64,000 bases of DNA, taken from assembly GCA_903900335.1 (NCBI GenBank), contig CAIUMP010000056.1, positions 157,020 to 221,019 of the forward strand, in the 5' to 3' direction. Positions 9,415-30,629 of this stretch are shown here, piece by piece. Origin of the DNA: an uncultured Ignavibacteriota bacterium. Lineage in GTDB: Bacteria; Bacteroidota; Ignavibacteria; Palsa-1295. Numbering within the stretch: the stretch's first letter is position 1; each line of letters begins with the position of its first letter. The notes beneath the pieces were generated by a model. It had not been told where the DNA came from. It ran no database searches and was given only the letters and a program-made list of their open reading frames with translations. Position numbers and translations under genes: made by a program.

Positions 9415-10848
9415 TTAATTCAACTTCACGAATGACTTGAATAAATAGCCTTCGGATGTCCATAAACCAAGCACGAAAATTCCTGCATGAAGCTTGGACA
9501 AATCGACATCTCCCACCGTGCCGCGCGAGGAAATCAGTGGACATGCGTATGACGACCCCAGCACATCTATTGCCTCCACGCGCTCAATGGGCAGCGAACC
9601 AGCGACATCGAAATGAAGCACCGAACTTACGGGGTTAGGTGTAAGATCGATGTGAGATTGTGAAGCCTGGGAAGCGCTCCGCACGCTGGATACGGGAGGC
9701 CCGACATACCGCATCACGTAACCAGCGGTTGAATCGTGAAACGTTGTTCCAGTGACCGTGTCGTTTCCAACCGCCCAGCCATGCGAGGCATCGGTAAAGC
9801 AGAGTGCGTTGATGAGGAGACCCTTCGCGCTCACCGAATCAATCTTCCAATGCACTCCGTCGGTACTCATGGCGAGAAGGCTTGCCGGGTGTAGTGAAGT
9901 GAGTGTATCCCCGCTCGATATTGCGGCCCAAACAGCACCCCCTGCAGCTCCCATCGCTGCAATGCGACCCAGAAATATTGTAGAGCCCGTCCATGTCTCG
10001 CCCGTGTCCGTACTGAGGTAGTACGAGTTGGGGTATATCACATTCTGTCTAAAACCGTTTGTAATATAGGAGTGATAAAGCCAAATTCTCTTCGTTCCTA
10101 TCTCCGCCACGATCGGCCCAGTTGCGCTATAGTCGTTTTTGTTATTGGTATCAGGAAAAGGCTGGAAATGGTAAGCCCAATGGACTCCGCCATCGACCGT
10201 CTTAACAAAGCCAACGCCCGCGCTCGTGTCAGACTGCGACCCCCCCGGGCTGAGGCATGTTAAACTATCCAGCCAAAGTTCACCGAACGGTGCTGTTCCC
10301 GAGTTTGATTCAAAAGTACCATCTGATCGTTTCAGAGCAAAGGACTTCGCGCTGTCTTCTGTCTTGTAAATGTCCACATCGTTAGTCGAAAGGCCATAGC
10401 CGGACGAAGCCGAAAACATGTGAAGATGATCAAAGCTGGTAAGTTGGTATTTCCGATGAATCCACGTTGCACCAGAATCGAAGCTACACAAGTCGGAAGG
10501 GCTCATGTACACGACCTCGCGTGCAGGCGTAGAAATTTCAGGTCCAGATTGAAAAGTCGTAAAACTCGAATCAAGCACCGGGTCGATCTCATTCCATGAT
10601 TGCCCTGCGTCGAAAGTCCGAAAAAGGCGATAGTAGGCATACGGTTTTGAGGGAACGGGCCGAGAGAGGGAAATACCCCCGACATAACCCACCATACTGT
10701 CGACAAAGTGGACTTGCGTCGCAAGAAAATAATTTGCGATCTTCATTCTGCTCCACCCCGAGGATTGGGCGAGTGTATCGCCAAATCCCACAATGTTAAA
10801 GATTGAGATAATGATCGCAATTCGTTTGATACTTGTGTTCGGTCTCAT
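9415..10848 (-). CDS. secreted BNR/Asp-box (Ycf48-like) repeat protein with a T9SS C-terminal sorting domain
   Basis: It has an N-terminal signal peptide (MRPNTSIKRIAIIISIFNIVGF…AQS). BNR-like S/T-x-D-x-G-x-x-W motifs recur (DAGQSWNEI, DSGATWIH, DGGVHWAY, DTGETWTG, DGVHWKID). The C-terminus (…LTPNPVSSVLHFDV…VEAIDVLG…GIFVLGLW…KLN) fits the T9SS C-terminal domain. Confidence 0.65.
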   Translation of the reverse strand: MRPNTSIKRIAIIISIFNIVGFGDTLAQSSGWSRMKIANYFLATQVHFVDSMVGYVGGISLSRPVPSKPYAYYRLFRTFDAGQSWNEIDPVLDSSFTTFQSGPEISTPAREVVYMSPSDLCSFDSGATWIHRKYQLTSFDHLHMFSASSGYGLSTNDVDIYKTEDSAKSFALKRSDGTFESNSGTAPFGELWLDSLTCLSPGGSQSDTSAGVGFVKTVDGGVHWAYHFQPFPDTNNKNDYSATGPIVAEIGTKRIWLYHSYITNGFRQNVIYPNSYYLSTDTGETWTGSTIFLGRIAAMGAAGGAVWAAISSGDTLTSLHPASLLAMSTDGVHWKIDSVSAKGLLINALCFTDASHGWAVGNDTVTGTTFHDSTAGYVMRYVGPPVSSVRSASQASQSHIDLTPNPVSSVLHFDVAGSLPIERVEAIDVLGSSYACPLISSRGTVGDVDLSKLHAGIFVLGLWTSEGYLFKSFVKLN

Positions 10849-11436
10849 CTAATTTCCGCTCTCACAGCAATTCTTGTAACCACCCCCTCCATTTGGCACA
10901 TGCGATGGGTCGATGGTACAGCTACTACCATCATCGAACGTGATAGTCCAGAGGCACTTGGTGCAGGCGTGACAGAGCTCCGTCATGAACCATTCTCCCG
11001 TTGCAACTTCACCAGCGGTGGAAGTCGGATTAAATTCGACAGTAAACGCCGAAGTCGCATCGCCGCAACCGCCGAAAGCCAAATAATGTGATGTCCAGTT
11101 CGTATTGGTTCCGTTATAGCGGAGCGCGTAACAGATAGTATAGCTGCTGTCTGGCGGGGGAGTGCAGTCGATATCGATCTTCGATATCTTTTTTAGCGAA
11201 TATCGGTTCTGAAGTGAGTACTGCCTACAGCTCAAATTGGGCAGCGGGGGATCGCATACGCTCTGACAGGGAGACTCGTCGTTATGGCATTGAAAAATAA
11301 TCTGTTCGATCGGAAGCTGGGGAGGAGGAGGATCGGGCTGATTGACCGTACACGGAGTTTGTGCGTGCACGCTCTGAGTCATAGATACTGTGCTTAATAC
11401 GGCAAGGAGTATTGCAAAATACGCGGTTCGTTTCAT
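10849..11436 (-). CDS. secreted cysteine/proline-rich hypothetical protein
   Basis: It has a signal peptide (MKRTAYFAILLAVLSTVSMTQSVHAQ) and ~16 Cys in 170 mature residues. Its stop abuts the start of the downstream BNR/T9SS gene (10848/10849), so it is co-transcribed. Confidence 0.55.
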   Translation of the reverse strand: MKRTAYFAILLAVLSTVSMTQSVHAQTPCTVNQPDPPPPQLPIEQIIFQCHNDESPCQSVCDPPLPNLSCRQYSLQNRYSLKKISKIDIDCTPPPDSSYTICYALRYNGTNTNWTSHYLAFGGCGDATSAFTVEFNPTSTAGEVATGEWFMTELCHACTKCLWTITFDDGSSCTIDPSHVPNGGGGYKNCCESGN

Positions 11437-11461: not shown

Positions 11462-12524
11462 TTAGAATGGAGTTAATTGCAGGAGTCCTTTATCCGTAGC
11501 TGCGAGTAGCCCGCCATCAGGTCGGTATTTCAGCGACCATACGTACCACCCGCCGAGAGTATCGATCCCTTTCCAGGAATTCCCTCGATCAAGTGATTCA
11601 TACATGCATGATTTACGCCTACCGTCATGGTTCGGACCAAAGTACCCAATGCAAATTCTTGAGGGATTCATTCGATCGATGTCAATCGCCCAGCCTGGGA
11701 ATCCATTCTTATGAGACGATAACCGCGTACTACCATACGAGAGATAGCAGTTCATACCGGTGGAATCGTAGGCGTCCGTTGTACATACAGCAAGTGTTCC
11801 GGCAACACCAGCTACTTTCGGAAGTTCTCTGCCATCGAGTCCTGTGCCACTTAGAATGGTTGTCCATGACCTCCCTGTATCATCGCTCGACAGGACGATT
11901 CCGGGTCTCGAACAACTTAAGACAAATTGCTGGCCGCGTTCTGATTCTCTGCAAATCAGTGAGCAAGCGTATGATTTGATCGCAGTGTCTGCTTTAGCTG
12001 TCGTATCCCAACTGTTACCATAGTCTTTCGACGATAGAAGACCCGGGGGATAAATGCTTGCGGCGTAAATCGTGTGACTACCTTCCTCGAAATTTAGAAT
12101 TTCACCGCCGCCAGTCCCCGTGAATACTTTGGCGAAATGATAACCTGAATCACAGCTAAGAAATAAACTTCCCATGTGACCGTTCCAGCCCGCTACGAGA
12201 ATGCTGCCGTTAGGGAGAGGTACAATTTGCTTAATAACGTGACCATTTTCTATTGTTCCAAGCGGATGCCACGTGTCCGAAGCACTATTTCTAAAGTAGA
12301 GTGTGATTCGGCTGGATGCATAGATCGGCCACTGAGCTCGTTCGTTAACCGAGAAGAAAGATTCACAATGGCGAGGAAATAGCAACTCTTGCTTGTAACC
12401 ACCCGACGCGGAAGGAGAGCGGTAACCACTGAACGAAGCTAATAGGGCGAAGCAAAAAATTGCCCCCCCCCCATCGGTGGCGGAAACTCAATAACACACG
12501 ATCAATAGAGCGACGAAACCGCAT
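11462..12524 (-). CDS. secreted BNR/Asp-box repeat protein; the 5' end is interrupted by a frameshift in a G10 (plus-strand C10) homopolymer
   Basis: The track ORF 11462..12385 starts at a TTG and lacks a signal peptide. 35 codons upstream in the same frame still encode a hydrophobic core (…GGAIFCFALLASFSG…) but hit a stop with no start. An ATG at 12524 in the +1 frame encodes MRFRRSIDRVLLSFRHRW…, a signal-peptide n-region. The two frames join inside the homopolymer at 12463..12472. The body has BNR motifs (GNSWDTT, DTGRSWTT, DRGNSWKG). Confidence 0.55.
12463..12472. repeat. C10/G10 homopolymer tract at the signal-peptide junction of the BNR gene
   Basis: It reads tgcccccccccc atcgg on the plus strand. 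Removing one G restores a continuous ORF from the ATG at 12524 through the BNR body. Confidence 0.55.
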
Positions 12525-12842
12525 GGCGACAGTCCTCAGAGCTTAGAGCATTTCTTTAACTCGTAACAATATAACACAATTTTTGACAGGCATGGTAAAA
12601 ACAACCACCCTCCCCCATATAGGAAGGGCGGCCCCCCACGGCCGCCCCACTTTGTCGAATGATGGTGCGTCACCTTTCGGAGGCGCACCCTGACAACTCC
12701 CTGCTTTCGCAAACCTTTAGTCCCTCCCCTGTGCTGGGCCGAGGAGGGACTGAGAAAGAGATCATACCGTCACCCACTGTTACCGCCCAACTGGTTTCCC
12801 GGGCAACAATCGTTCGTGGGTTGGCTGGTCATTATTCCAAAT

Positions 12843-14981
12843 TTATCTCCCTGGATTGATAATGGTGTATCCAATTCTGATCTTGTCCGACGTGCTGTAG
12901 TTGGTCACGTTCGTTGCCGTCGGAATCATCCCGACACGAATATCGAACGCGCCCGACGTTCGGTTATCGACATCGACAAAGTACTCCGCTTGTTTGGCAT
13001 CCGGCAAAATGCCGTCATCTATCTTCGACAAAACGCTCACGATGACAATGCTCGATGCCGACGTATAGCGGTTGTTGATCGTGAGCGTGCCGAGGTTCTG
13101 GAATGTCCCCGCAGTCGGTGCCGCTGTAACAAGATTTCCAGTCGCGCCAAGCGTCAGTTCTATAACGCCGCTCGGTCCTTCGGCAGAGTATGATGTTCCC
13201 GCCGTTGCACCTTCGACGACTGCTCCCACACTTGGGCTTTGCGTCGTGCGTCCCATCGCGAACTCGCCGTCGTTCAGTTGCAGCGCCACGTTCGTCTGTC
13301 CTGCGGTGGTGTTGCCGTTACCAGTTGCCAGCACACCGATCGTGCCGGTGTTCGATGAGTTGGTATTCGTCGCCGTACCCCACACCCCTACCGCTTGGTT
13401 TGCAGTACTTCCGTTTGCGTTCGCATAGACCGCGGCAACTTCGTCCGTCGTACCCGTATAGAGCGAGTGAAATTGGTGCGTTGTAGTGGTCGTGTTCACT
13501 GCCACTTGACCGCTGGAGAGTATGCGCATTCTCTCCGTATTGTTCGTACGAAAGACCAGGGCCTGTGCATCGATCGTGCCGAGATAATTCGTAGAAGAGC
13601 TCGTGCCAGTATTACCCAAGGTACTCCAATAGAGATTGGACGTCGACGTCCAAACCGGTGCAGTGGCAGAGCCCGTTGAAGCCAGCACATAGCCTGATGT
13701 TCCCGCATTACCAGCAGGCATCAAAGCGCCGGAGAAGCGAAGATTACCTACAATATCAAGCGCTTCGGCAGGAGTTTGGGTACCGATACCCACCTTCGTT
13801 CCACCGCCGGAGTTGTAATAGACAACCGAGTTGTCTTGCGTAACTGTCGCTCCGACACCAAAGGCAAGGGAGTAATTGCCTGTCACGGTATTCGTATTAC
13901 CGCCGAGGATCGTTGAATAATTACCACACGCAGTGTTATTACTTCCACCGACCACAACGGAATAGGATCCGCACGCACTATTGAATTGGCCCGCGCAAAC
14001 TGCGGAGTAAGATCCCGTTGCCGAGTTGCTGGTGCCTCCGCCAACGCTGCTGTAATCACCACTTGCCGTATCTGAGGTGCCTCCGGCCACGACAGAGGCA
14101 TAACCCGTTGCGCGATCGAACTCGCCCCACGCCACCGAACCTGCCCCGGAGGCAAGGTTGCTAAGACCATCCGTTATGGAATAGGCACCAGAGGCCGTAC
14201 AGTTCGAGCCAACGCCAACAAGAGCAAACGTACCGCTACCGCGTTTCCACAAAGTATCGACACCGCCACCCCCGACAAAGCCGAACCCCTTCCAGGAGAG
14301 ATTGCCAGATCCGTCCGTGCAAAGGACGTAGTCTGTACCATTTCCATCCTGGGGAGGAAGGATATATGTTACGCTTGCCGTTTGGACGCCAGCTTTGAAT
14401 CCCGTGTATGTCGAACCAGACCCCGAGGGCTCATAGAATCGGAGCTCCTCCGCGTTGTTGGTCGTATTCGTGAGACCCACATTTCCTCCGGCATATACGC
14501 GCATGTGTTCTGTATTATTCGTGCGAATCACGAAATCGACCGAGTCCTTTGTACCAAGAAAATTGGTGCTTGCGTTTGTACCGGAGTTTCCAAGAATAAG
14601 CCAGCCAGAGCCAAGGAATGGCACCCAAGCCGTTCCGTTATAATAATAGAACGTGGAGGGATTCGAAGCATTTACGGAGTCCGTGCAATAGACAAGAAGA
14701 CCGGTCGCCGGAGATGCGATCGCGCTGCGTTGGGATTGCGTCATTCGTGGAACCAGCAGTCCACGCGACAAACTGGTAAGATCCAAGAGTGCGCTCGCGT
14801 CCGGCGAAACGGTACCGATGCCGACGTTACCTTGCGCGTGAACTGCGGGCACCAGCGAAGCAGTAAGGGCAGCCAATAGGATGAACGTGCAGGATAACCT
14901 TCGCAAGCATCGCACGCGTGCGCCCCGTGCCGCTCGCCGACGTGGCTCCATCATTTGTTGTTTGAAACGTGTGTATTGCAT
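12843..14981 (-). CDS. large secreted repeat protein, paralog type 1 (copy A): tail-fibre-like N-terminal module, YadA-head-like G/S/N repeats, conserved C-terminal domain
   Basis: It has a signal peptide (…CTFILLAALTASLVPAVHAQ). Next comes QGNVGIGTVSPDASALLDLTS…GLLVPRMTQSQRSAIASPATGLLVYCTDS…FYYYNGTAWVPFLGSGW, and this module recurs at ~aa 390 (KVGIGTQTPAEALDIVGN…). A 14-residue-period Gly/Ser/Asn repeat block follows (ASGDYSSVGGGTSNSATGSYSAVCAGQFNSACGSYSVVVGGSNNTACGNYSTILGG). The C-terminus is …YFVDVDNRTSGAFDIRVGMIPTATNVTNYSTSDKIRIGYTIINPGR. It is ~75% identical to copy C. Confidence 0.75.
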   Translation of the reverse strand: MQYTRFKQQMMEPRRRAARGARVRCLRRLSCTFILLAALTASLVPAVHAQGNVGIGTVSPDASALLDLTSLSRGLLVPRMTQSQRSAIASPATGLLVYCTDSVNASNPSTFYYYNGTAWVPFLGSGWLILGNSGTNASTNFLGTKDSVDFVIRTNNTEHMRVYAGGNVGLTNTTNNAEELRFYEPSGSGSTYTGFKAGVQTASVTYILPPQDGNGTDYVLCTDGSGNLSWKGFGFVGGGGVDTLWKRGSGTFALVGVGSNCTASGAYSITDGLSNLASGAGSVAWGEFDRATGYASVVAGGTSDTASGDYSSVGGGTSNSATGSYSAVCAGQFNSACGSYSVVVGGSNNTACGNYSTILGGNTNTVTGNYSLAFGVGATVTQDNSVVYYNSGGGTKVGIGTQTPAEALDIVGNLRFSGALMPAGNAGTSGYVLASTGSATAPVWTSTSNLYWSTLGNTGTSSSTNYLGTIDAQALVFRTNNTERMRILSSGQVAVNTTTTTHQFHSLYTGTTDEVAAVYANANGSTANQAVGVWGTATNTNSSNTGTIGVLATGNGNTTAGQTNVALQLNDGEFAMGRTTQSPSVGAVVEGATAGTSYSAEGPSGVIELTLGATGNLVTAAPTAGTFQNLGTLTINNRYTSASSIVIVSVLSKIDDGILPDAKQAEYFVDVDNRTSGAFDIRVGMIPTATNVTNYSTSDKIRIGYTIINPGR

Positions 14982-14986
14982 TCGGG

Positions 14987-17158
14987 CTACCTTCCTGCAT
15001 TAATGACGACATACCCAACCTGGATATTGTCCGATCCCTGATATCCCCCAGCATCGGTCACGAACGGGATCATCCCGATTCGCACCGTGCACGACCCTGC
15101 CGTTCGGCTTTCGACATTCACCTTATAGATGGAGTTCTTGGGGTCAGGAGAACCACCACCATTTATTTTGCCGACCACTCCAATCTGGATGATACTACTG
15201 GAAGTGATGTAGCGATTGTTGATCGTGACTGTGCCCAGATCCTGGAACACACCCGCCGTCGGGGGATTGGAAGAAAGATCCGTTTGAAGCGAAAGCTGAA
15301 TCACTCCCGATGGTCCCTGCTGTGAATAGAGCGTTCCTGCGGCTGCAGATCCCGTGACCGTACCGGCCGATGGTGCTTCCGTTGTTCTACCCATTGCGAA
15401 TTCACCCTGGCTGATCTGCAAAGCAACGTTGGTTGTCCCAGTTGTTACATTCCCGTTGCCCGTCGCGAGTACGGCAACGGTGCCAGTGTTCGATGTGCTT
15501 GTGTTATCGGCTCTGCCCCATATGCCAACCGACTGCGAGGCTGTGCTACCCGATGCAACGCCATAGATCGCTGCTGATTCATCCACAGTGCCAGTATACA
15601 GTGACGAGACCTGATGCGTAGTTGATGTGGTATTAATACCGAGGAGACCGGAGGAGCCGATGCGCGCACGCCCTGTGGCGGTCGTACGGATTGCGAAGTC
15701 CTGCGCGTCCGTCGTTCCAATGAAGTTCGTTACTGGGTTGCTCCCGAACGTGCCCGTAAGACCCCAGTTCGTCGATGGAATAGCAATCGTCCCCCACGTC
15801 GGCGGACTCCCACTCCCGGCTGATTTGAGATATTGCCCCGAACTTCCCCCGGAGCCATTTGGCTTGATCGCAAGGGAAAAACGTAAGTTACCAACGACAT
15901 CCGTCGCCTCTGCTGGGCTCGCTGTCATGATTCCCATTTTCACGGTGGGTGGAGTCGGAGGAAAAAAAATGAGCTGATTGCTTCCAGCAGGATGGAGATT
16001 CGCACCAAAGATCAGGTTATCCTGACCAGCCGTGCTGTTGTTTGCTCCGTTAATGATCACCGCCTCCGAGCCGCTGATGCTGTTTGAGCTACCATTCAGA
16101 ACCGTCGCATTGGTCCCTGAAGTAGAGTTGCTCGATCCACCGCCTACATAGGAGTTGTTGCCTGAAGAGTTATTCAGCCGCCCCCCTCGTACAGCACCGC
16201 TCTGCGAAGAGACCGTATTGTTGGAGCCTCCGGAGATTGTGCCGTCCTTGCCACTGGTTCGATTGCTATCACCGAACGCTACTGAACCTTGACCTGATGC
16301 CGTGCAATACTCCGTCGCAGAAATGGCATACTTTCCGCTGCTCTTGTTGCCAATACCATCACCTTCGAGTGCGTCTGATCCGCTTCCGCGATTCCACAAC
16401 GTTACCGAGCCGCCACCACCGATCGTTGCGAACGTGTGCCAGCTCATCGTGCCAAGGCTATCGACAAGCGCGGCGTTCGGGCTACCATCTCCTGGAGGAA
16501 GCAGGTAGTGAATAGTCGAGGTCTGTACACCTGCTTTGAATCCGGCAAAGAGAGAGCCGAGGCCCGAAGCTTCATAAAAGCGGAGTGCACCTGCTACATT
16601 TTGTGTGTTGGTAAGACCAATATCACCTCCATTAAAGAAGCGCATGCGCTCATACCCATTCGTCTTCTGCACAACATCCTGCGCATCCTTCGTGCCGAGA
16701 AAATTTGTGGAGGCGCTCGTTCCTGCGTCACCCGTCAGCGACCAACCCGAACCGACAAGTGGCGTCCAGATCGAACCGTTGTAATAGTAGAAATTGGTGT
16801 AGGTATTATCAAAGACGAAGTCACTGGTAGCCGGGGTGGTGATCGCCTGCATCTGTGCATCGGTCACGCGTGGCATGAGGAAGCCTTGCGTGGTTGACTC
16901 TAAATGCAAGAGCGCAGAGTTGTTCGCTGCGGCAGTTCCGATGGAGACATTTTGGGCACGTATTCCGGATGGGCACGTAAGTACCCACAGGAGAAGGCTA
17001 ACAACGATAATTGCCGATCCGAATCGTGCACGAGCAAATCGACACAACGGTTCGGGCACTGCTGAGTCAGTGCAATTACATTTGGATGACGGATCACCCA
17101 CGAATGCATCCAGAGCAATGGATGGCATGACGTATCCTGATGATGTTTTGGCAAACAA
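14987..17158 (-). CDS. large secreted repeat protein, paralog type 2 (copy B)
   Basis: It has a signal peptide (…FGSAIIVVSLLLWVLTCPSGIRAQ). Then come NVSIGTAAANNSALLHLESTTQGFLMPRVTDAQMQAITTPATSDFVFDNTYTNFYYYNGSIWTPLVGSGWSLTGDAGTSASTNFLGTKD, G/S/N-rich beta-roll-like repeats, and a C-terminus …YKVNVESRTAGSCTVRIGMIPFVTDAGGYQGSDNIQVGYVVINAGR. Its stop lies 5 nt from the start of copy A. Confidence 0.75.
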   Translation of the reverse strand: MFAKTSSGYVMPSIALDAFVGDPSSKCNCTDSAVPEPLCRFARARFGSAIIVVSLLLWVLTCPSGIRAQNVSIGTAAANNSALLHLESTTQGFLMPRVTDAQMQAITTPATSDFVFDNTYTNFYYYNGSIWTPLVGSGWSLTGDAGTSASTNFLGTKDAQDVVQKTNGYERMRFFNGGDIGLTNTQNVAGALRFYEASGLGSLFAGFKAGVQTSTIHYLLPPGDGSPNAALVDSLGTMSWHTFATIGGGGSVTLWNRGSGSDALEGDGIGNKSSGKYAISATEYCTASGQGSVAFGDSNRTSGKDGTISGGSNNTVSSQSGAVRGGRLNNSSGNNSYVGGGSSNSTSGTNATVLNGSSNSISGSEAVIINGANNSTAGQDNLIFGANLHPAGSNQLIFFPPTPPTVKMGIMTASPAEATDVVGNLRFSLAIKPNGSGGSSGQYLKSAGSGSPPTWGTIAIPSTNWGLTGTFGSNPVTNFIGTTDAQDFAIRTTATGRARIGSSGLLGINTTSTTHQVSSLYTGTVDESAAIYGVASGSTASQSVGIWGRADNTSTSNTGTVAVLATGNGNVTTGTTNVALQISQGEFAMGRTTEAPSAGTVTGSAAAGTLYSQQGPSGVIQLSLQTDLSSNPPTAGVFQDLGTVTINNRYITSSSIIQIGVVGKINGGGSPDPKNSIYKVNVESRTAGSCTVRIGMIPFVTDAGGYQGSDNIQVGYVVINAGR

Positions 17159-17541
17159 GATTGGTTCTGTAAACCAATCACAATAATTGAAGTCCGGTGG
17201 GGTTAAAGCGATACTAAGCGCGGAGTGGGGACCGGGCTCGCCTTATCGGACGTTGCAAACTATGAGCTATGTATAAGACAAGTCCAGCGGCAGAATTAGT
17301 GCTAGTGAGCTTGTTACGAATGAAGATTTCGGAAGAATTATTAAGTTTCATAGCGACACCAGTCCGCCATTGTTCCACATCTGTACACTCACATTGCAAA
17401 GTGGAATCCTTCTGTGCCACAGGAGCGCCGGGGCGAGAGGTTATCAGACACAGTCCATCATCGAAGTGGGTCTGATCAAACTCTCAGAAAGTATCTCTAA
17501 CAGGGTTCTGAACTAATCGCACGCACTCGCCTTGCCTCGAT

Positions 17542-19653
17542 CTATCTACCCGCATTGATGATCGTGTATCCGATCCTGATTTTGTCAGAGGTAGTATAGT
17601 TGGATACGTTCGTGGTCGTAGGAATCATCCCGACTCGAATGTCGAACGAACCCGTCGTTCGATTATCCACATCGACAAAGTATGTCGCTTGTTTGCAATC
17701 GGGCGCGACACCGTCATCCGTTTTCGTGAGCACGCTGACGATCACAATACTCGTCGAGGAAGTGTAGCGGTTGTTGATGGTAAGCGTGCCTAGATTTTGA
17801 AAGACACCAGATGTTGGTGCTGCTGTGACGAGGTTACCAGTCGCACCAAGCGTGAGTTCGATCACGCCACTTGGTCCTTGTGCGGAGTATGCTGTCCCTG
17901 CTGTTGCTCCTTCGACGACCGTGCCGACACTCGGCGTCTCGGTTGTGCGGCCCATTGCAAACTCACCATCGTTGATTTGTAACGCAACGTTCGTTTGTCC
18001 CGCGGTTGTGTTTCCATTACCTGTCGCAAGCACGCCTATCGTTCCAGTGTTCGTCGCTCCTGTGTTAGAAGCGGATCCCCACAACCCAATGACTTGATTG
18101 GTCGAAGCCGCATTCGCGTTCCCATAGATCGCTGCAACCTCGTCAGTTGTACCGGTATAGACCGAGTGCAATTGATGAGAAGTCGTCGTCGTGTTGATCG
18201 CAACTTGACCTGTTGAAAGTATTCGGAGACGCTCAGTATTGTTCGTTCGAAAGACCAGCGGTTGTGCGTCCGAGGTACCGAGATAATTCGTAGCAGGGGC
18301 CGTCCCGGTGTTACCGAGGATCGTCCAATACAGGTTCGATGGTTGCACCCAACTCGGTGCACTACTTGCTCCGGTTGATGCTAGCACATACCCAGATGTC
18401 CCGGCGAGGTTATTCGGCATCAAAGCACCGGTGAATTTTACATTGCCCGAGACATCCAGCGCTTCAGTCGGAGTTGTCTGCCCAATTCCCAAACGTGTCG
18501 AACCCGTGGAGTGGTAGAAAACGATGCTGTTATCCTGTGTAACCGTTGCGCCGACACCAAAGACACAATCGTATGTACCGGATGCCGTGTTTGTGTTTCC
18601 TCCGAGGATCACGGAATAATCACCCGATGCCGAGTTAGAATACCCTCCGGCAACGATAGCATACATCCCGCACGCTCGATTATTCTTTCCCCCACTGACG
18701 ACCGAGTAATCTCCGCACGCATCATTTTGAAGTCCGCCAGCACAAACACTGTATGAGCCTGTTGCCGAGTCCTGCTGCCCGCCAGAGACCGTTGCACCAG
18801 AATCAGAAGCGAAGCTCTGATTTCCCCACGCGATGGAGAAGGCGCCGGATGCAGTGCTGTGATATCCACCAGCCATTCCATAATTGCCGGATGCCGTATT
18901 GCCTGTCCCGACTCCTTCAAGCGCATACAGTCCGCTGCCACGCCGCCACAACGTGTCAACACCACCACCACCCGACGTTCCAAATGATTTCCATTCCAGG
19001 TTACCGAATCCATCTGTGCAGAGAACCTGCGAACTCGTACCATCGGAGATCGGCAGTGTGTACGTCACATTTCCTGCCTGGACACCTGCTTTGAACCCTG
19101 TGTAATTCGTACCAGAAGAGGAAGGCTCGTAGAACCGTAACTCTTCGGCAGTGTTGTTGGAATTTATCAGGCCTACATTGCCTGCGGCGTACACTCGAAG
19201 TCGCTCTGTATTGTTAGTTCGGACCACAAAATCCTGCGAGTCTTTTGTACCAAGAAAATTGGTACTCGCCGTCGTTCCAGAATTCCCTGTTAACAACCAA
19301 CCGGAACCAAGGAACGGCACCCACGCTGAGCCGGTGTAATAATAGAATGTGGATGGATACGAGGAGCTGACCGAATCCGTACAGAAGACAAGTAATCCCG
19401 TTGCGGGTGTGGAGATCGCATTTCGTTGCGTCTGTGTCATGCGTGGAACCAGCAACCCGCGTGAAACACTGGTGAGGTCCAGGAGTGCGCTCGCATCCGG
19501 CGCTGTAGTGCCGATACCAACGTTACCTTGGGCAAACGCGGAATGTACACCGAACAGGTTGAGATTGAAAATGAAGACAATCGATGCTATCGCAATCGTG
19601 AATCGCATCGGATTCACCCGCCAAATCGCCTTGATGTTGAATAGATAATTCAT
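17542..19653 (-). CDS. large secreted repeat protein, paralog type 1 (copy C)
   Basis: It is near-collinear with copy A (QGNVGIGTTAPDASALLDLTSVSRGLLVPRMTQTQRNAISTPATGLLVFCTDS… to …YFVDVDNRTTGSFDIRVGMIPTTTNVSNYTTSDKIRIGYTIINAGR). The probable start is the internal Met at ~19608 (MRFTIAIASIVFIFNLNLFGVHSAFAQ). Confidence 0.75.
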   Translation of the reverse strand: MNYLFNIKAIWRVNPMRFTIAIASIVFIFNLNLFGVHSAFAQGNVGIGTTAPDASALLDLTSVSRGLLVPRMTQTQRNAISTPATGLLVFCTDSVSSSYPSTFYYYTGSAWVPFLGSGWLLTGNSGTTASTNFLGTKDSQDFVVRTNNTERLRVYAAGNVGLINSNNTAEELRFYEPSSSGTNYTGFKAGVQAGNVTYTLPISDGTSSQVLCTDGFGNLEWKSFGTSGGGGVDTLWRRGSGLYALEGVGTGNTASGNYGMAGGYHSTASGAFSIAWGNQSFASDSGATVSGGQQDSATGSYSVCAGGLQNDACGDYSVVSGGKNNRACGMYAIVAGGYSNSASGDYSVILGGNTNTASGTYDCVFGVGATVTQDNSIVFYHSTGSTRLGIGQTTPTEALDVSGNVKFTGALMPNNLAGTSGYVLASTGASSAPSWVQPSNLYWTILGNTGTAPATNYLGTSDAQPLVFRTNNTERLRILSTGQVAINTTTTSHQLHSVYTGTTDEVAAIYGNANAASTNQVIGLWGSASNTGATNTGTIGVLATGNGNTTAGQTNVALQINDGEFAMGRTTETPSVGTVVEGATAGTAYSAQGPSGVIELTLGATGNLVTAAPTSGVFQNLGTLTINNRYTSSTSIVIVSVLTKTDDGVAPDCKQATYFVDVDNRTTGSFDIRVGMIPTTTNVSNYTTSDKIRIGYTIINAGR

Positions 19654-19662
19654 GATGGATCG

Positions 19663-21756
19663 TCAGCGGCCAGGATTGAGAATGACATAGGCAAGTCGAA
19701 TATAATCGGATCCCTGATACGCGCTAAGATCCGTAACAAATGGGATCATGCCGATACGAAGTACACAGGAGCCAACCGAACGGCTATCGACATCCACCTT
19801 ATAGACCGAATTTTTGGGATCAGGCGAGCCCCCGCCATTCGTTTTCGCGACAATACCTGCAACGATAATGCTGCTCGCAGTAATGTAGCGGTTATTGATC
19901 GTCACGGTGCCCAAATTTTGAAAAACGCCGATTGTCGGGGCAACCGCGCTGAGATCCGTTTGTAACGAAAGCTGGATCACACCAGACGGCCCCTGTGCTG
20001 TGTACAGCGTCCCTGCAGTTGCTGACTCGAGCACAGTACCGACCGACGGTGTCTGAGTGGTGCGGCCCATCGTAAGCTCGCCTTGTGAGATTTGAGCCGC
20101 AGCGTTCGTCGTACCCGTGGTCGCATTTCCATTTCCGGTTGCAAGCACAGCAACCGTGCCCGTGTTCGTCGCTCCGGTGTTACCAACCCTTCCCCACGCC
20201 CCAATGGCTTGTGTCGCAGTCGAACCAGATGCGTTTCCATAGGCTCCCGCCGTTTCATCTGTTGTTGTTGTAATGATGGAAGAGAGTTGAGCCGTCGATA
20301 TGCTTGTATTGACCCCAATCTGACCGGCAGAAAGAATCCGACACCGAACGGAGGCGTTCGTTCGAACCACCAGATCTTGCGCGTCCGTCGTGCCGACAAA
20401 ATTGGTGGCCGGGTTCATCCCAGAAGTGCCCGTCAAACCCCAATTGTTAGAGGAGAACGTTGCTGAGCCCCATGTAGGCACAACGCCAGAGCCTGCAGAC
20501 AAGAGATATTGTCCACTTGAGCCTCCCGCATTGTTCGGCTTCAGCGAACCAGAGAATCGAAGGTTACCCGCAACATCGAGCATCTGCGAGGGAGCTTGCG
20601 TCCCAATTCCAAATCGAGTGGTGTTCGTCCCCGGCGTTTTGAAGACAATAAACTTCTGCGTACCGACCGAGATGCCAGAGCCATAGCACATCTCATAATT
20701 TCCACCGATCGAGTTTGTCGTTCCGCCAAGAATGGTGCAGTTTGTTGCGCTGATCGAATTCCCGTTGCCACCAAGGATAGCGGAATAATCTCCCTGCGGA
20801 GAATTTGATTTGCCACCGTTTGCATTCGTGGCGGTGGCCTGCACTGAGTTATTCTGCCCACCACCCGTGACATCGTCATTACCGGTTGAGGAATTCGAGC
20901 TACCCCCCGAAACGGTACCGGCTGTTCCGGAAACGGAAATGGAGTTACCGAACCCTATATCATAATTGCCCGTAACGCTTGAGCTAATACCCGCCGCGAT
21001 GGCATACGGCGCCGATGAACTATTACTGGCTCCAACACCATTCTCTCCTCCCGCCGCAGAGCCACGCGACCACAAAGTTGTTGATCCACCTCCACCAAAT
21101 GTGGAATAGATATGCCAGCTGAGGTTAGCTGTTCCATCCGTGATCATCGCAGCATTTGTCGTACCGTCCGCTGTTGGAAGGACATAGTGGACGTTGCCCG
21201 CTTGAGGACCGGCCTTTATGGCTGTGTAATATGTGCCAGAGCCAGATGGCTCATAAAAGAGAAGCCGCCCCGCTGTGTTTGTACTGTTGGTAAGACCGAT
21301 GTCGCCGGCACTGTAAAATCTCAACCGCTCTATGGCATTGGTCCTCTGCACGACATCAACAGCGTCTTTGCTGCCTAGAAAGTTGGTGGATGGGCTCGTG
21401 CCAGCATCACCTGTTAACGACCAACCACTGCCGACCATTGGGGTCCAATAAGACCCTGTGTAGTAGTAGAAATTGGTGTAGGTGCTGTCATAAACCAAGT
21501 CTCCGGTAGCAGGTGTGGTGATTGTCCGCATTTGCGCGTCGGTCATGCGCGGTATGAGAAGACCCATGGCTGTCGACCCAAGATGCAGGAGCGCTGAACT
21601 CGCCGCGCTGGTCGTGCCGATCGATACATTTTGCGCACGCAGATCGATAGTCCATACTCCTGGTGAAAGGAGTAGGATCAAAGCGATTCTGATGGCGACA
21701 CAGCGCCCAAGAAGCCGCCTTCTCTCCCGTGGGGAGGGCAGAAGGGTAGTGTTCAT
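19663..21756 (-). CDS. large secreted repeat protein, paralog type 2 (copy D)
   Basis: It is collinear with copy B (QNVSIGTTSAASSALLHLGSTAMGLLIPRMTDAQMRTITTPATGDLVYDSTYTNFYYYTGSYWTPMVGSGWSLTGDAGTSPSTNFLGSKD… to …YKVDVDSRSVGSCVLRIGMIPFVTDLSAYQGSDYIRLAYVILNPGR). Its stop lies 9 nt from the start of copy C. Confidence 0.75.
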   Translation of the reverse strand: MNTTLLPSPRERRRLLGRCVAIRIALILLLSPGVWTIDLRAQNVSIGTTSAASSALLHLGSTAMGLLIPRMTDAQMRTITTPATGDLVYDSTYTNFYYYTGSYWTPMVGSGWSLTGDAGTSPSTNFLGSKDAVDVVQRTNAIERLRFYSAGDIGLTNSTNTAGRLLFYEPSGSGTYYTAIKAGPQAGNVHYVLPTADGTTNAAMITDGTANLSWHIYSTFGGGGSTTLWSRGSAAGGENGVGASNSSSAPYAIAAGISSSVTGNYDIGFGNSISVSGTAGTVSGGSSNSSTGNDDVTGGGQNNSVQATATNANGGKSNSPQGDYSAILGGNGNSISATNCTILGGTTNSIGGNYEMCYGSGISVGTQKFIVFKTPGTNTTRFGIGTQAPSQMLDVAGNLRFSGSLKPNNAGGSSGQYLLSAGSGVVPTWGSATFSSNNWGLTGTSGMNPATNFVGTTDAQDLVVRTNASVRCRILSAGQIGVNTSISTAQLSSIITTTTDETAGAYGNASGSTATQAIGAWGRVGNTGATNTGTVAVLATGNGNATTGTTNAAAQISQGELTMGRTTQTPSVGTVLESATAGTLYTAQGPSGVIQLSLQTDLSAVAPTIGVFQNLGTVTINNRYITASSIIVAGIVAKTNGGGSPDPKNSVYKVDVDSRSVGSCVLRIGMIPFVTDLSAYQGSDYIRLAYVILNPGR

Positions 21757-26073: not shown

Positions 26074-27381
26074 CTACCGCCTGCCAATCCCGTAATAGGT
26101 AAACCCATACTCCCGCATGCGCTCGGGATCGTAGATATTGCGGCCATCGAAGACGACCTTATCTCGCAATTTCGACGAGATCGACTCAAAGTTCGGGTTG
26201 CGGAATTCATTCCACTCTGTAACCACGACAAGCGCGTCACTGTCTTCGAGCGCATCCATGTTCTTGCGGTAGTACTTCAAATTGGCACTCTCTGGTAGAA
26301 CCGTTTTCATTGGTGTGATCGCCGCAGGGTCACTTGCGTGAATGATGGCTCCGCGTGCTATGAGCCCAGTAATGATCTCTATCGCTGGTGCCTCACGAAT
26401 ATCATCTGTGCGTGGCTTAAAGGAGAGTCCCCAGACTGTGAATACCTTACCGGAAACATTGCCTTCGTAGTGGGCTAAGATCTTATCCAGCAGCTTTGTC
26501 TTTTGTCTGTCGTTGACATCCTGCACAGCACGGAGAATGGAGAAATCATGACCAAACTCGGCCGCGGTCGAAATAAGCGCCTTGATGTCCTTCGGGAAGC
26601 AACTTCCACCGAATCCAACACCAGGAAAGAGAAACTGCGGACCGATGCGTCCATCCGAACCAATACCTACGCGCACACTATCGACATCGGCGCCGACGAG
26701 ATCGCAGAGATTTGCAATCTCATTCATAAAACTGATCTTCGTTGCGAGCATCGAGTTCGCAGCATACTTCGTGAGCTCCGAACTGCGCTCGTCCATGATG
26801 AAGATCGGATTTCCTGTGCGAACGAACGGCTCATACAGCTCCTTCATCGTCTCGATCGCACCCGCATCACGCGAGCCAACCACGATGCGATCCGGCTTCA
26901 TAAAATCCTGAACGGCAGCGCCTTCTTTGAGAAATTCCGGATTGGATACGACCTGAACCGGGATCTTCGTCTCCGCTTCGAAAATGGCTCGAACACGGTC
27001 CGCCGTACCAACCGGCACCGTGGATTTATTGACAACAACCTTCGGCGTCGTCATGATCTTGGCGATCTGCTTCGAGGTTTCGAGGACCATTGAGAGATCA
27101 GCAGCGCCATCCATGCCGGGTGGAGTGGGCAAGGCCAGGAAGATCACTTCAGCGCTATCAACGGCCTCTTTGAGATCGAGCGTAAAACGAAGGCGTCCCT
27201 CGGCAACGTTGAACTTCACGATCTCTTCCAGACCTGGCTCGAAAATTGGGATGATACCCTTTCGAAGATTTTCGATCTTCTCGGGCACAATATCCATGCA
27301 GAGGACCTGATTCCCCGTTTCGGCAAATCCGGCTCCGGTAACGAGACCTACGTAGCCTGTTCCAATAATTGCTATGTTCAC
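26074..27381 (-). CDS. ugd: UDP-glucose 6-dehydrogenase (nucleotide-sugar dehydrogenase family)
   Basis: The N-terminal Rossmann motif is MNIAIIGTGYVGLVTGAGFAETG. The catalytic-region motif GGSCFPKDI and the 435-aa length are typical of Ugd and relatives. Confidence 0.8.
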   Translation of the reverse strand: MNIAIIGTGYVGLVTGAGFAETGNQVLCMDIVPEKIENLRKGIIPIFEPGLEEIVKFNVAEGRLRFTLDLKEAVDSAEVIFLALPTPPGMDGAADLSMVLETSKQIAKIMTTPKVVVNKSTVPVGTADRVRAIFEAETKIPVQVVSNPEFLKEGAAVQDFMKPDRIVVGSRDAGAIETMKELYEPFVRTGNPIFIMDERSSELTKYAANSMLATKISFMNEIANLCDLVGADVDSVRVGIGSDGRIGPQFLFPGVGFGGSCFPKDIKALISTAAEFGHDFSILRAVQDVNDRQKTKLLDKILAHYEGNVSGKVFTVWGLSFKPRTDDIREAPAIEIITGLIARGAIIHASDPAAITPMKTVLPESANLKYYRKNMDALEDSDALVVVTEWNEFRNPNFESISSKLRDKVVFDGRNIYDPERMREYGFTYYGIGRR

Positions 27382-27543
27382 GCTGTGGCTTAAAAAGAGG
27401 TTTTGATTCGTTGAGTCACGCAGCTTAGAAGTTGCGAGTACGAGCCCTGTAAAACATCACGAACGAAGTATTGCTCCCCGTTAGGTGCCCGTCAGTCAAG
27501 ATTCATGAGCATTCAGAATTCTCCACGCGCTTCTCTTCTATGC

Positions 27544-27782
27544 TTCTTTTTAAATAGAGATTTAAATACTAATAATTGATTTAAAGGGTGTGGACATGTG
27601 GAGAACACAAACCTCGTTCACGAATCACCGTGATAGACCGCATCTCGCTTCGCGTTCACATCTTATCCATCTGTTGGCTAACATGTGGCTAACTGGTGTT
27701 AGACGAACAGTCCACATATCCCTCCACAGTCTTCCTGTGGTCTGGCTTCCTCTATCCACAGCTTGTGATTTCTTATCCAGAC
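27544..27782. other. predicted chromosomal replication origin (oriC): AT-rich DNA-unwinding element plus a DnaA-box cluster
   Basis: A ~43-nt AT-rich stretch (ttctttttaaatagagatttaaatactaataattgatttaaag) lies in an otherwise GC-rich genome. It is followed within ~200 nt by at least 5 sites with 8/9 match to TTATCCACA in either orientation. These are tgtggagaa, TTATCCATC at 27663, tgtggctaa at 27685, CTATCCACA at 27752 and TTATCCAGA at 27772. Weaker sites lie among them. The region is ~120 nt from the duplicated dnaA 3' end. Confidence 0.6.
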
Positions 27783-27842
27783 GTTAGTGAGGAAAGGTTT
27801 TTGAAGTGGCGAGTTATCATGCAGAGTATGGTATAACTATTT

Positions 27843-27875
27843 AAAACTAAAAAGCCGCGGTACTCCAGCGGCTTT
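27843..27875 (-). terminator. intrinsic terminator (minus strand), probably the original dnaA terminator
   Basis: The minus strand reads AAAGCCGC-tggagtacc-GCGGCTTT followed by TTAGTTTTAAA. This is an 8-bp GC-rich stem with a 9-nt loop and a T-rich tail. It lies immediately downstream of the dnaA 3'-end duplicate at 27902..28023. Confidence 0.55.
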
Positions 27876-27901
27876 CGTTAGGTATTCGAGCTGTTATTGT
27901 G

Positions 27902-28023
27902 TCACTGCATCATATCAAACTGCCTCCGCAGCTCATCTATCTTCGTCAGCAGCGCCGGGTTGTGCTTCATGTCGTCGAGCACGGTTTGCACGGCGTGGAT
28001 GACGGTGGATTGGTCGCGTCCGC
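27902..28023 (-). pseudogene. duplicated 3' end of dnaA (last ~40 codons plus stop), copy 1 of a ~120-nt diverged direct repeat
   Basis: Its minus-strand translation …SGRDQSTVIHAVQTVLDDMKHNPALLTKIDELRRQFDMMQ* is identical over the last 36 residues to the true dnaA C-terminus at 28767... There are ~8 nucleotide differences versus copy 2 (28764..28885). There is no upstream gene body, and it abuts the stop of the DUF5615 gene. Confidence 0.65.
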
Positions 28024-28359
28024 TCAAATGAACTCAACCCTTCCCCTCATCTCCTCCACCGAATTGTTGCCATGAACGGATGCGCATTCCATGATGATTG
28101 CGCCGAGAGAATGTCCTTCCTGTTTGCAGTAGATTAAGCCGGGATGATCCGGGTTGCGAGAGGCGATGCGGAGGAAATCGTCATCGTGGGTAATGAGCAC
28201 ACGGCCTTCTCTCGTTGCATATTCCCACTGTTTCTCATCTGGCGTACCTCGCAGTTTGACTGCTTTAGAAACAGTAATATCAATTCCCATCGCTTCGAGT
28301 GCTTTGGCGATTCGGGAATTTACACTCTCATCCAGGTGGAATCGAATCTTCTCGCTCAT
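28024..28359 (-). CDS. DUF5615-family (PIN-like, toxin-like) protein
   Basis: The 111-aa product is MSEKIRFHLDESVNSRIAKALEAMGIDITV…VLITHDDDFLRIASRNPDHPGLIYCKQ…. This is the typical partner of DUF433 proteins. It is AT-rich relative to the flanks. Confidence 0.6.
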   Translation of the reverse strand: MSEKIRFHLDESVNSRIAKALEAMGIDITVSKAVKLRGTPDEKQWEYATREGRVLITHDDDFLRIASRNPDHPGLIYCKQEGHSLGAIIMECASVHGNNSVEEMRGRVEFI

Positions 28360-28364
28360 GCGAC

Positions 28365-28661
28365 TTACGCAACGTATTTCCGATTGTCGGTTGCTTCGTA
28401 CTGCTTCCGGAATTCTGCAACAAAGCGAGCATCATCATCTATACCCTGATCTATCTCGGTCTTATGATCGTAATAGTATGTCATGGCAGCATAGACATCG
28501 GCGAGAGATAAGTCGAAATCGCCCGCGATGAGTTCAAGCTCCATTCCATTGCGCAGGTGTTTGATCACAACATCTTTCACAGTGATTCGTGTACCGGCAA
28601 TGCGAGGTCGTCCAAAGGCGATCTCCTTGTCGGTGACAATATGTTGCAGCGATGATTGCAT
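28365..28661 (-). CDS. DUF433-domain protein (antitoxin-like partner of DUF5615)
   Basis: The Met-initiated product (ATG at 28661) is MQSSLQHIVTDKEIAFGRPRIAGTRITVKDVVIKHLRNGMELELIAGDFDLSLADVYAAMTYYYDH…, which carries the DUF433 signature. It lies 5 nt upstream of the DUF5615 gene. The longer track ORF start (28739) runs into the dnaA repeat. Confidence 0.65.
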   Translation of the reverse strand: MQSSLQHIVTDKEIAFGRPRIAGTRITVKDVVIKHLRNGMELELIAGDFDLSLADVYAAMTYYYDHKTEIDQGIDDDARFVAEFRKQYEATDNRKYVA

Positions 28662-28763
28662 GTAATTGTAACGCCCTCGTGTAACGGAAAGTTTTGGCTT
28701 AACGTAATGTCGAGCGAGGACGCTCGACCTACAATTCACAAGAAGCAGTCGGCTCGTGATTCG

Positions 28764-28885
28764 ATCTCACTGCATCATATCAAACTGCCTCCGCAACTCA
28801 TCGATCTTCGTGAGCAGCGCCGGGTTGTGCTTCATGTCGTCGAGGACGGTTTGCACGGCGTGGATGACGGTGGAGTGATCGCGGC
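28764..28885. repeat. copy 2 of the ~120-nt dnaA-3' direct repeat (this copy is the functional end of dnaA)
   Basis: tcactgcatcatatcaaactgcctccgca[a/g]ctcatc[g/t]atcttcgt[g/c]agcagcgccgggttgtgcttcatgtcgtcgag[g/c]acggtttgcacggcgtggatgacggtgga… matches 27902..28023. Both copies start exactly at the dnaA stop codon. Confidence 0.65.
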
Positions 28886-30629
28886 CACCGAAGTGAATAC
28901 CGATGGTCTTGAGCGAGTTGTTGGTCAGCTCCTTCGCGAGGAACATGGCCACCTGCCGGGCTTCCACTACTTCCTGCTTGCGCGTCTTGGCGCGAAGCAG
29001 ATCTTCTTCAATGCCAAACTTGCGCGAGACGGTCCGCTGTATCGTTTCGATAGTTAGGATCGGCGCCGAGCGTTTCGCAACCTTACGGAGCACTTCCTTT
29101 GCTATCTCCAGTGTCGGTGCGTTGCCCTCAAGCGATGCTGTGGCCAACAGAGAGATCAGGCATCCTTCGAGTTCGCGGATGTTCGTCGTGATGTTCGTCG
29201 CGATGAATTCGATCACGTCGCTGGAAAGCTCGATGCCGTCGGAGATGGCTTTGTGACGGAGAATTGCAATACGCGTTTCTAAGTCCGGTGCGCCGATGTC
29301 TGCTGTTAGGCCCCACTGCAAGCGGTTCAGTAGGCGGTCGTCAATGTCCTTCAGCTCTTTCGGTGCGCGGTCGCAGGTCAGAATTATCTGCTTGCCAAGT
29401 TCGCGAAGCGCATTGAACGTGTGGAAGAAAATATCCTGCGTCTTCTCCTTGCCGGCAAAGAACTGCACGTCATCAATGATGAGGACATCAATAGAGCGAT
29501 AGAGACTCTGGAATTCATTGATCCGGTCGTTCTGAATGGCATCCACGAATTCGACAGTGAATCTGTCGCTGGATGTATAAAGGACTCTGGCTCCGGAGAA
29601 CTTCTGCAGCACGGCATTTCCCACTGCCTGGATCACGTGTGTTTTTCCGAGACCCACATTGCCGTAGATTACCAGCGGATTGTAGCGCGTTCCACCAGGA
29701 TTATTTGCAACTGCCATCGCTGCAGCATAGGCAAGCTTGTTCGATTCACCTCGGATGAAGGTGTCGAAGGTGTATCGCGGATTCAGATTGGGCTCGATCG
29801 GCTGGCGCTTTTGCTGGGAGGCGGAAGCGCCATTCTGCTGTGGCTGCTGCGGTACAGCGCGTGATGCGAACGGCGAAGGTATCGCAGGCGCATAGGGCGA
29901 AGGCTGCGAACCAAACGAAGGAGAGTTGAATGGCTGCGCACCCGTGCGTTGTGAATGATGCGGCGAAGAAGCGAGAACGTTTGTCGGTCGTTCAGTCACG
30001 ACCGGAGCAGCAGATGGAACCGGCACAACTGGCGAAGGCGCGGCCTCCAGTTTCGTGTTCACCGATTGGATCTCGCTCGCGCTATCAAAGCGGAACTGGG
30101 CGGCGGCACCAAGAACATCCTGCAGTGCCTTTTCGAGTAACGACTGGTAATGCTCGGTGATCCACTCGCAGAAGAAATTGCTGGGCACACGAAGCGTGAT
30201 CTCCGAGCCTTCCAAGGCCGTGGCTTCCAGCGGTTCGAACCACGTGCGCATCGTCTGCGCGCTGAGTTGAGGGCGAATAAGCTCCAGGCATCGCTTCCAG
30301 ATCCGTTCGGCAGCAAGGCGCAAGTCAGATGTCGATCGATCGCTTTCCGCGACGACCGACGATTCCTCTTTTCCAGTCAAAGGGCTGGGCCTCTGCAGTT
30401 CACTTTCCACGTTGCTTTCTTCAGGCTCGAACATCGCGCCGGTCTTTGGTATGGCATTCGTTGTGCGATGCCCAATGCGATTGCCACTCGAACGACTGAG
30501 CGCAGGGCTTGGTGCAAGCGATTGCTCCATTCCTCGTCCGCTCAGGCGTGTTATCGGCGACTCTGCGATTTCAATTTCAAGTTCGGAGAACTCTGTTCTC
30601 GTCATAATTTCTGACAAACGGAAGAACAC
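28767..30629 (-). CDS. dnaA: chromosomal replication initiator DnaA
   Basis: It has the AAA+ Walker A motif GNVGLGKTHV, the box VII/sensor regions, and the C-terminal DNA-binding domain …VVEARQVAMFLAKELTNNSLKTIGIHFGGRDHSTVIHAV…. The N-terminal domain I (ERIWKRCLELIRPQL…) begins ~100 aa after the first ATG. The true start may be an internal Met (aa 9, 34 or 66). A long Pro/Gln-rich domain II linker is present. Confidence 0.9.
   Translation of the reverse strand: MFFRLSEIMTRTEFSELEIEIAESPITRLSGRGMEQSLAPSPALSRSSGNRIGHRTTNAIPKTGAMFEPEESNVESELQRPSPLTGKEESSVVAESDRSTSDLRLAAERIWKRCLELIRPQLSAQTMRTWFEPLEATALEGSEITLRVPSNFFCEWITEHYQSLLEKALQDVLGAAAQFRFDSASEIQSVNTKLEAAPSPVVPVPSAAPVVTERPTNVLASSPHHSQRTGAQPFNSPSFGSQPSPYAPAIPSPFASRAVPQQPQQNGASASQQKRQPIEPNLNPRYTFDTFIRGESNKLAYAAAMAVANNPGGTRYNPLVIYGNVGLGKTHVIQAVGNAVLQKFSGARVLYTSSDRFTVEFVDAIQNDRINEFQSLYRSIDVLIIDDVQFFAGKEKTQDIFFHTFNALRELGKQIILTCDRAPKELKDIDDRLLNRLQWGLTADIGAPDLETRIAILRHKAISDGIELSSDVIEFIATNITTNIRELEGCLISLLATASLEGNAPTLEIAKEVLRKVAKRSAPILTIETIQRTVSRKFGIEEDLLRAKTRKQEVVEARQVAMFLAKELTNNSLKTIGIHFGGRDHSTVIHAVQTVLDDMKHNPALLTKIDELRRQFDMMQ

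Follow-up and report, generated by a model that had tools for sequence, protein, structure and literature searches.

The 64,000-nucleotide (nt) stretch of DNA analysed here, called the window, comes from an uncultured Ignavibacteriota bacterium (contig CAIUMP010000056.1, positions 157,020 to 221,019). Between 12524 and 11462 of its minus strand lies a gene for a predicted secreted β-propeller protein whose signal-peptide coding region holds a run of ten G residues. The minus-strand ATG at 12524-12522 encodes MRFRRSIDRVLLSFRHRW, and then come exactly ten G (12472..12463; C10 on the plus strand). The codons read from 12472 give GGGAIFCFALLASFSGYRSPSASGGYKQELLFPRHCES... and stay open down to the stop at 11464-11462. 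This frame, +1 relative to ATG 12524, holds the hydrophobic core and the propeller body. The gene consists of the following features (ORF, open reading frame; aa, amino acids):

12473..12524, minus strand: ATG 12524, 17 codons (MRFRRSIDRVLLSFRHRW), an Arg-rich n-region; the body is in frame with it only at G9 or G12
12463..12472, minus strand: the G10 homopolymer, which sets the frame and encodes a Gly run at the boundary between the n-region and the hydrophobic h-region (n/h boundary)
12472..12474, minus strand: a second ATG, which shares its G with the start of the run; the body is in frame with it at G8 or G11
12363..12524, minus strand: the off-state ORF from ATG 12524 in the G10 form as sequenced, 53 codons, ending at TGA 12365-12363
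11462..12472, minus strand: the body frame, 336 codons and a stop, with the hydrophobic core AIFCFALLASFSG, a linker and a predicted seven-bladed BNR/Asp-box β-propeller
11462..12175, minus strand: the truncated public gene call P0001, 237 aa, without the first 99 body-frame residues

An earlier, sequence-only reading of this DNA had described an n-region from ATG 12524 leading into G10, with the core and BNR body continuing in the neighbouring frame, and this arrangement was reproduced from the sequence. Deletion of one G does fuse both parts as it had claimed; the length given there, 354 aa, belongs to G12, and G9 yields 353 aa (..HRWGGAIF..), both from ATG 12524. The products of other tract lengths were tabulated in silico. 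G8 and G11 give 336 and 337 aa from the second ATG, beginning MGG(G)AIFCF..., while at G7, G10 and G13 both starts are out of frame with the body (off). Two of the three tract-length classes thus yield a product with the hydrophobic core, and in this table the gain or loss of a single G switches the product between full-length and truncated. The second ATG at 12474, which the sequence-only reading had overlooked, has no Shine-Dalgarno (SD)-like motif upstream and no charged n-region; we infer that it may be used. No ATG, GTG or TTG is present in the body frame 5' of TTG 12385. Apart from the tract, the gene is open over 342 codons from stop to stop and carries no second lesion.

The body was modelled with AlphaFold2 (AF2) from a 22-sequence alignment. 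The model is all-beta with a predicted local distance difference test score of 88.7; residues 1-21 are disordered, and residues 26-32 form the first strand. The best Foldseek matches were GH74 propeller domains and the seven-bladed YCF48 (E 1e-12 to 1e-10, identity 11-17%). Three Asp-boxes of the canonical form S-x-D-x-G-x-x-W are present (SKDYGNSW, SDDTGRSW and SLDRGNSW). The Pfam BNR-type models scored below their cut-offs, and further sequence models were likewise sub-threshold: PSII_BNR with 18 vs 27 bits, PRK13684 with 14.7 vs 326 and F510_1955 with 33.6 vs 175. A full HMMER search found 158 homologues, and the match of the family hidden Markov model (HMM) to the body frame begins at 12451. 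Fold and motifs support the prediction that the body is a seven-bladed BNR/Asp-box propeller, a fold that it shares with YCF48/HCF136 and with single propeller domains of GH74 xyloglucanases. Membership in the YCF48 or GH74 family was rejected, because the curated models failed, the identities are as low as stated, and the gene encodes one propeller whereas GH74 has two; a photosynthetic context, moreover, is absent here.

In intact homologues (P0006, P0007, P0009, P0012, P0013, P0016, P0017, P0031, P0046 and others) a signal peptide is followed by H[CV]E[SAG]F. The family alignment places AIFCFALLASFSG on the hydrophobic cores of these signal peptides. Since the intact homologues carry the signal peptide at their N-terminus, the ancestral architecture is a signal peptide joined to the body, and the split seen here is not native. 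The intact homologues have n-regions of 1 to about 20 residues. Long n-regions rich in Arg are common among the neighbouring secreted proteins of the window and are present in the homologues P0009, P0016 and P0026, which makes ATG 12524 credible as the native start. The prediction that the product is secreted is supported by the homologue signal peptides, by the disordered residues 1-21 and by operon partners of the type IX secretion system (T9SS) type. The earlier claim of a secreted BNR protein is supported both by the alignment of the core with homologue signal peptides and by the AF2 and Foldseek results.

Other starts and other signals were considered for this gene. TTG 12385 was rejected as the native start because it lies at residue 30, inside the first strand, and would give no signal peptide and a cut fold. 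ATG 12175 was rejected because it would lack a signal peptide and lose the first 99 body-frame residues. For a twin-arginine (Tat) signal, no Tat-signal family was found in an NCBIfam scan at E up to 0.1, and F-R-R-S-I-D fits S/T-R-R-x-F-L-K poorly. A lipoprotein signal was discarded because AIFC, judged by eye, is not a lipobox.

The G10 tract is the sole run of at least nine of any base in the 64-kb window. A search for further long G/C tracts, which the sequence-only reading had suggested genome-wide, gave none of at least nine in the window, and none was found in 292 kb of related loci. The next-longest runs, A8 at 15962-15969 and C7 at 10240-10246, each lie in frame within an intact ORF. 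With the tract masked, Markov models of orders 1-5 gave an analytic expectation of 0.01-0.04 G/C runs of at least ten per 64 kb. With a dinucleotide shuffle, which is cruder and more permissive, 10 of 100 shuffled sequences had two or more G9 matches. The tract is a real but moderate outlier.

The public records of the locus agree on the truncated gene call. P0001 is found on five contig records (NCBI, ENA and Logan), all five of which give the 237-aa call, and five neighbour proteins are on the same five contigs. Exact look-up among about 15 billion proteins found none of the G8, G9, G11, G12 and TTG-12385 forms, and the 53-aa off-state product is absent from the same collection. The records thus appear to carry the broken gene throughout, and the five contigs may share the same reads.

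Interruptions elsewhere in the family were surveyed with an HMM built from 11 intact members against three-frame translations of related loci, with direct reading and tblastn added. The following members were broken or incomplete:

L001 (P0002), between nt 343 and 364: signal peptide and HCESF in one frame, body in another; no homopolymer at the break
L090 (P0020), near nt 271-295: a clear frameshift; the family HMM matches the two halves at E 4e-27 and 2e-66
L086 and L087 (P0011), nt 13-15: a conserved Leu codon replaced by an in-frame TAG, in two assemblies
P0005: lies inside its contig, yet its call lacks both ends
L082-L084 (P0008, Candidatus Kapaibacterium), 1436-1503: a stop 8 codons before the body ATG, with a signal-like ORF of 18 codons in another frame and the junction at a C5 run

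The frame of P0008 leaves no room for a signal peptide, and L082-L084 may be split at the C5 run. Two further candidates for N-terminal truncation, P0018 (L088) and P0027 (L089), were rejected because both are intact and have mis-called starts. Three other family members are interrupted near their 5' thirds at non-repeat sites, which suggests that this propeller family may be recurrently inactivated. Because cluster representatives at 50% identity include a disproportionate share of truncated products, broken members look more frequent than they are.

The sequence-only reading had named a phase-variation switch and a sequencing error as alternatives, and four explanations were weighed here. 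As the best of these, though one that we stop short of calling probable, we tentatively propose that the G10 run exists in the genome and serves as an on/off tract of the slipped-strand, simple-sequence-repeat kind in the signal-peptide coding region, sequenced here in its off state. The rarity of the run and the agreement of the public records were counted in its favour. The tract lies at the n/h boundary, where length is tolerated, and within a 19-residue segment that is absent from the orthologue L001. The gene is otherwise intact and gives a complete and confident propeller model, and no other split genes were seen in the window. Contingency loci evolve where selection on a secreted protein fluctuates. 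As this family is often inactivated elsewhere, we counted that pattern in favour of a switch.

Under such a switch, slippage of the polymerase during replication would alter the tract by one G in either direction. At G9 or G12, translation from ATG 12524 would run through Gly-Gly(-Gly) into the core AIFCFALLASFSG and give a precursor of 353 or 354 aa, which would be exported, cleaved and folded into the seven-bladed BNR propeller. At G10, ribosomes starting from ATG 12524 would halt after 53 codons. Since the body at G10 has no start that includes the signal peptide, an exportable protein would not be made. The long untranslated stretch may also reduce expression of the two downstream genes by polarity. 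At G8 or G11, ATG 12474 could yield a weaker product without the n-region. Tract length would presumably vary within the population, and the switching may be put to adaptive use.

Several observations weigh against this proposal. The sole orthologue with a readable 5' end, L001, encodes P0002 (54% identity) and starts MRSLLLFALISSSS...; it has neither the tract nor the 19-residue segment FRRSIDRVLLSFRHRWGGG around it. The sequence-only reading had held that orthologues without the tract and with a different starting Met would refute a switch. L001 does lack the tract and starts at a Met without a long n-region. We take this to make the tract lineage-specific rather than to prove an error, and a comparison with one orthologue at 54% identity is a weak test. 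By composition alone, about 0.5-2 such runs are expected per genome, assuming a size of a few Mb, and a lone G10 per genome is within the reach of chance. No other relevant contingency-type simple repeats were found in the window. With a lone tract in 64 kb and no further simple-repeat candidates, a genome-wide 'phasome' is not shown. Exact-product look-ups with P0001 and two neighbour proteins did not find a second copy of the locus. A two-sequence alignment scanned against genome and metagenome contigs gave no relatives, and the exact flanks with a tract of variable length had no match in metagenomes. Finally, family members are broken without any repeat, so decay would account for the frameshift equally well.

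The strongest competing explanation is a homopolymer miscount, in which an intact gene with a tract of G9 (or G12) was misread by one G during sequencing or assembly. We consider it somewhat unlikely. The single frameshift of the window coincides with its longest homopolymer, and one base restores a complete secreted protein that folds well in the model. Long-read chemistry miscounts long homopolymers, and the public close relatives include long-read metagenome-assembled genomes (MAGs) with Mb-size contigs; G-tracts disturb Illumina reads too. In Bifidobacterium breve, the G-tract length in RefSeq differed from that of the main population (PMC9187656). However, the five records from three sources agree on the truncated call and no in-frame form is on record, even if the reads may be shared. 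The A8 and C7 runs elsewhere in the window are in frame. Further members of the family are truly interrupted at non-homopolymer sites, so a real disruption here would not be unexpected. Even at G9 the tract would remain a slippage hot spot.

Plain decay, the third explanation that the sequence-only reading had overlooked, supposes a real and fixed loss of function in a dispensable gene of an often-broken family, with the slippery tract present by happenstance and no adaptive switching. The broken and incomplete members listed above fit it, as do the tract-less orthologue and the lack of other tracts in the window. We nevertheless regard it as rather unlikely. No second lesion has accumulated over the 342 codons beyond the tract, and a run of at least nine G is hard to call neutral against an otherwise tract-free background. 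The share of broken members, as noted, is inflated by the choice of cluster representatives. Tracts of ten G revert at high rates in known systems, so a strictly fixed state is unlikely.

Recoding of the G10 DNA, with a low constitutive level of full-length protein made through RNA polymerase slippage or +1 ribosomal frameshifting on GGG-G, is very improbable. Both RNA polymerase and ribosomes are known to slip on homopolymer runs, and a run of ten G permits +1 re-pairing at every codon. However, neither a stimulatory element nor a known RNA family was found, slippage by the polymerase is documented best for A/T runs, the orthologue is tract-less, and the breaks in homologues need other positions and directions (-1 in L001 and L082-L084 against +1 at the G10 gene). 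As the break positions and directions differ, there is no conserved recoding signal. A family-wide gene with programmed frameshifting or transcriptional slippage was rejected for the same differing directions, with no conserved slippery site and no stimulator.

Poly-G switches of the proposed kind have precedents. The pilin genes bbr_0113 and bbr_1889 of B. breve UCC2003 are switched by replication slippage in an intragenic G-tract, and mixtures of G11 and G12 were measured there, at odds with the RefSeq length (PMC9187656). As in the gene described here, a G-tract of about 10-12 separates one ORF with the Sec signal from another with the body, in a gene that comes first in its operon and is annotated as broken in the reference genome; B. 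breve is also a non-pathogen (PMC9187656). In B. breve, however, length heterogeneity was found by maximum-depth sequencing and the tracts occur in several species, whereas here the one orthologue with a readable 5' end is tract-less. The products also differ, an LPXTG pilin there and a BNR propeller here, as does the phylum.

In Neisseria, pilC carries a poly-G in its signal-peptide region. Poly-G tracts are also described within the ORFs of Neisseria hmbR/hpuAB (PMC3786947, PMC5953494). The likeness lies in an in-frame poly-G that toggles translation of a surface protein by slipped-strand mispairing. The difference is that Neisseria has dozens of such loci, in host-adapted pathogens and with measured rates, against one tract in the 64 kb analysed from this uncultured bacterium of the environment. 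Campylobacter jejuni and Helicobacter pylori have poly-G/C contingency genes, and CT repeats lie in the signal-sequence regions of oipA and hopZ. There too the repeat is in the 5' coding region of outer-membrane or secreted-protein genes and its number sets the frame. These two genomes carry many tracts and have incomplete mismatch repair. The mechanism proposed here is thus textbook and a nearly identical gene layout has already been described; what is new is the lineage, the kind of protein and the recurrence of interruptions across its family.

A more specific proposal is that this is a contingency locus of a free-living, Kapabacteria-like bacterium of the Fibrobacterota-Chlorobiota-Bacteroidota group, in which a lineage-specific poly-G, inserted at the n/h boundary of the signal peptide, gates the leading gene of a conserved operon that encodes the propeller, a small Cys-rich protein and a T9SS cargo. 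We put it forward as a doubtful possibility. The DnaA of the window is 66-73% identical to the DnaAs of Ignavibacteriota and Candidatus Kapaibacterium MAGs. If the proposal were correct, it would imply strong fluctuating selection on the secreted propeller, for example by phage or predators; repeated inactivation of propeller genes across environmental populations would point the same way. To our knowledge, almost all known cases of simple-repeat phase variation are from pathogens and commensals. If the tract is real and variable, it would extend the phenomenon beyond host-associated bacteria to an environmental uncultured lineage and would indicate that fluctuating selection acts on a conserved operon of three secreted-protein genes. 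The annotation is affected in any case, as the public 237-aa call starting at 12175 conceals the signal peptide and the first 99 body-frame residues. If the tract is a miscount, it would illustrate that MAG frameshifts at G/C runs of about nine or more need read-level checks.

The surroundings of the propeller gene hold these further elements:

12603..12633, minus strand: a terminator-like hairpin followed by GTTTTT, at the end of the upstream 712-aa gene
12567..12582, minus strand: a promoter-like block AAATTGTGTTATATTG, containing TATATTGT, that recurs at homologous loci
12533..12537, minus strand: GAGGA, an SD-like motif 8 nt upstream of ATG 12524
10849..11436, minus strand: operon gene 2, a 195-aa Cys-rich secreted protein starting 25 nt past the propeller stop
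9415..10848, minus strand: operon gene 3, immediately adjoining gene 2 and encoding a secreted BNR-like protein of 477 aa, whose BNR match is below the Pfam threshold

Of 16 other ORFs of the window that start with ATG and were checked, only about 5 have an SD-like motif in the 20 nt upstream, and because so few carry one the GAGGA is weak evidence for the start. Counterparts of the promoter-like block are found at L001:177-192 (AAATTGTGTATATTGG), L084:~1400-1422 (TATATTTG) and L089:~413-432 (TATTTTTG). The consensus, AAATTGTGT(T)ATATTG / TAnnTT(T)G, is conserved 5' of propeller genes in distant family members. A scan with the sigma-70 consensus gave no promoter upstream of the propeller gene. 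We take the block to resemble the Bacteroidota TAnnTTTG -7 element and propose, by eye, a promoter motif of the Bacteroidota type in place of sigma-70. Since the hairpin ends the preceding 712-aa gene, the propeller gene would have its own promoter. No known RNA element of Rfam was found in or around the leader. At homologous loci the order propeller, protein of about 200 aa and large BNR/T9SS protein is repeated, and the counterparts of gene 3 carry Por_Secre_tail, a T9SS sorting domain. The propeller gene is probably the head of a three-gene operon.

Upstream of the propeller gene, 12843-21756 of the minus strand encode four tandem secreted paralogues of about 700 aa (712, 723, 703 and 697 aa). 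They have long Arg-rich n-regions and share the C-terminus GMIP..T....Y..SD.I..GY.I.N.GR. No Pfam family matched them, and one sub-threshold match was to an ice-binding beta-roll. A second frameshifted gene was considered at 17214-17483, upstream of 14987-17158, and was rejected as no split signal peptide is present there. The UDP-glucose dehydrogenase at 26074-27381 (minus strand) has relatives of at least 90% identity on other ENA contigs (up to 268 kb); the secreted-protein genes adjacent to it in the window have no such relatives. A related genome that lacks the surface-protein region, or has diverged in it, may thus exist.

A second copy of the final 131 nt of dnaA (28767-30629, minus strand), 92% identical, lies 865 nt downstream (27902-28032 / 28767-28897). 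Between the repeats, at 28024-28739 on the minus strand, lie a DUF433 gene (E 2e-17) and a DUF5615/PIN-like gene (E 4e-17). The interval 28024-28766 had been a candidate for another frameshifted gene and was discarded because these are two real small genes. The pair looks like a toxin-antitoxin-type cassette inserted in the 3' end of dnaA, with a replacement end brought along or duplicated. The non-coding DNA past the dnaA duplicate, 27400-27900, contains several words that resemble TGTGGATA and TTATCCACA, together with an AT-rich segment, and by eye it looks like a replication origin.

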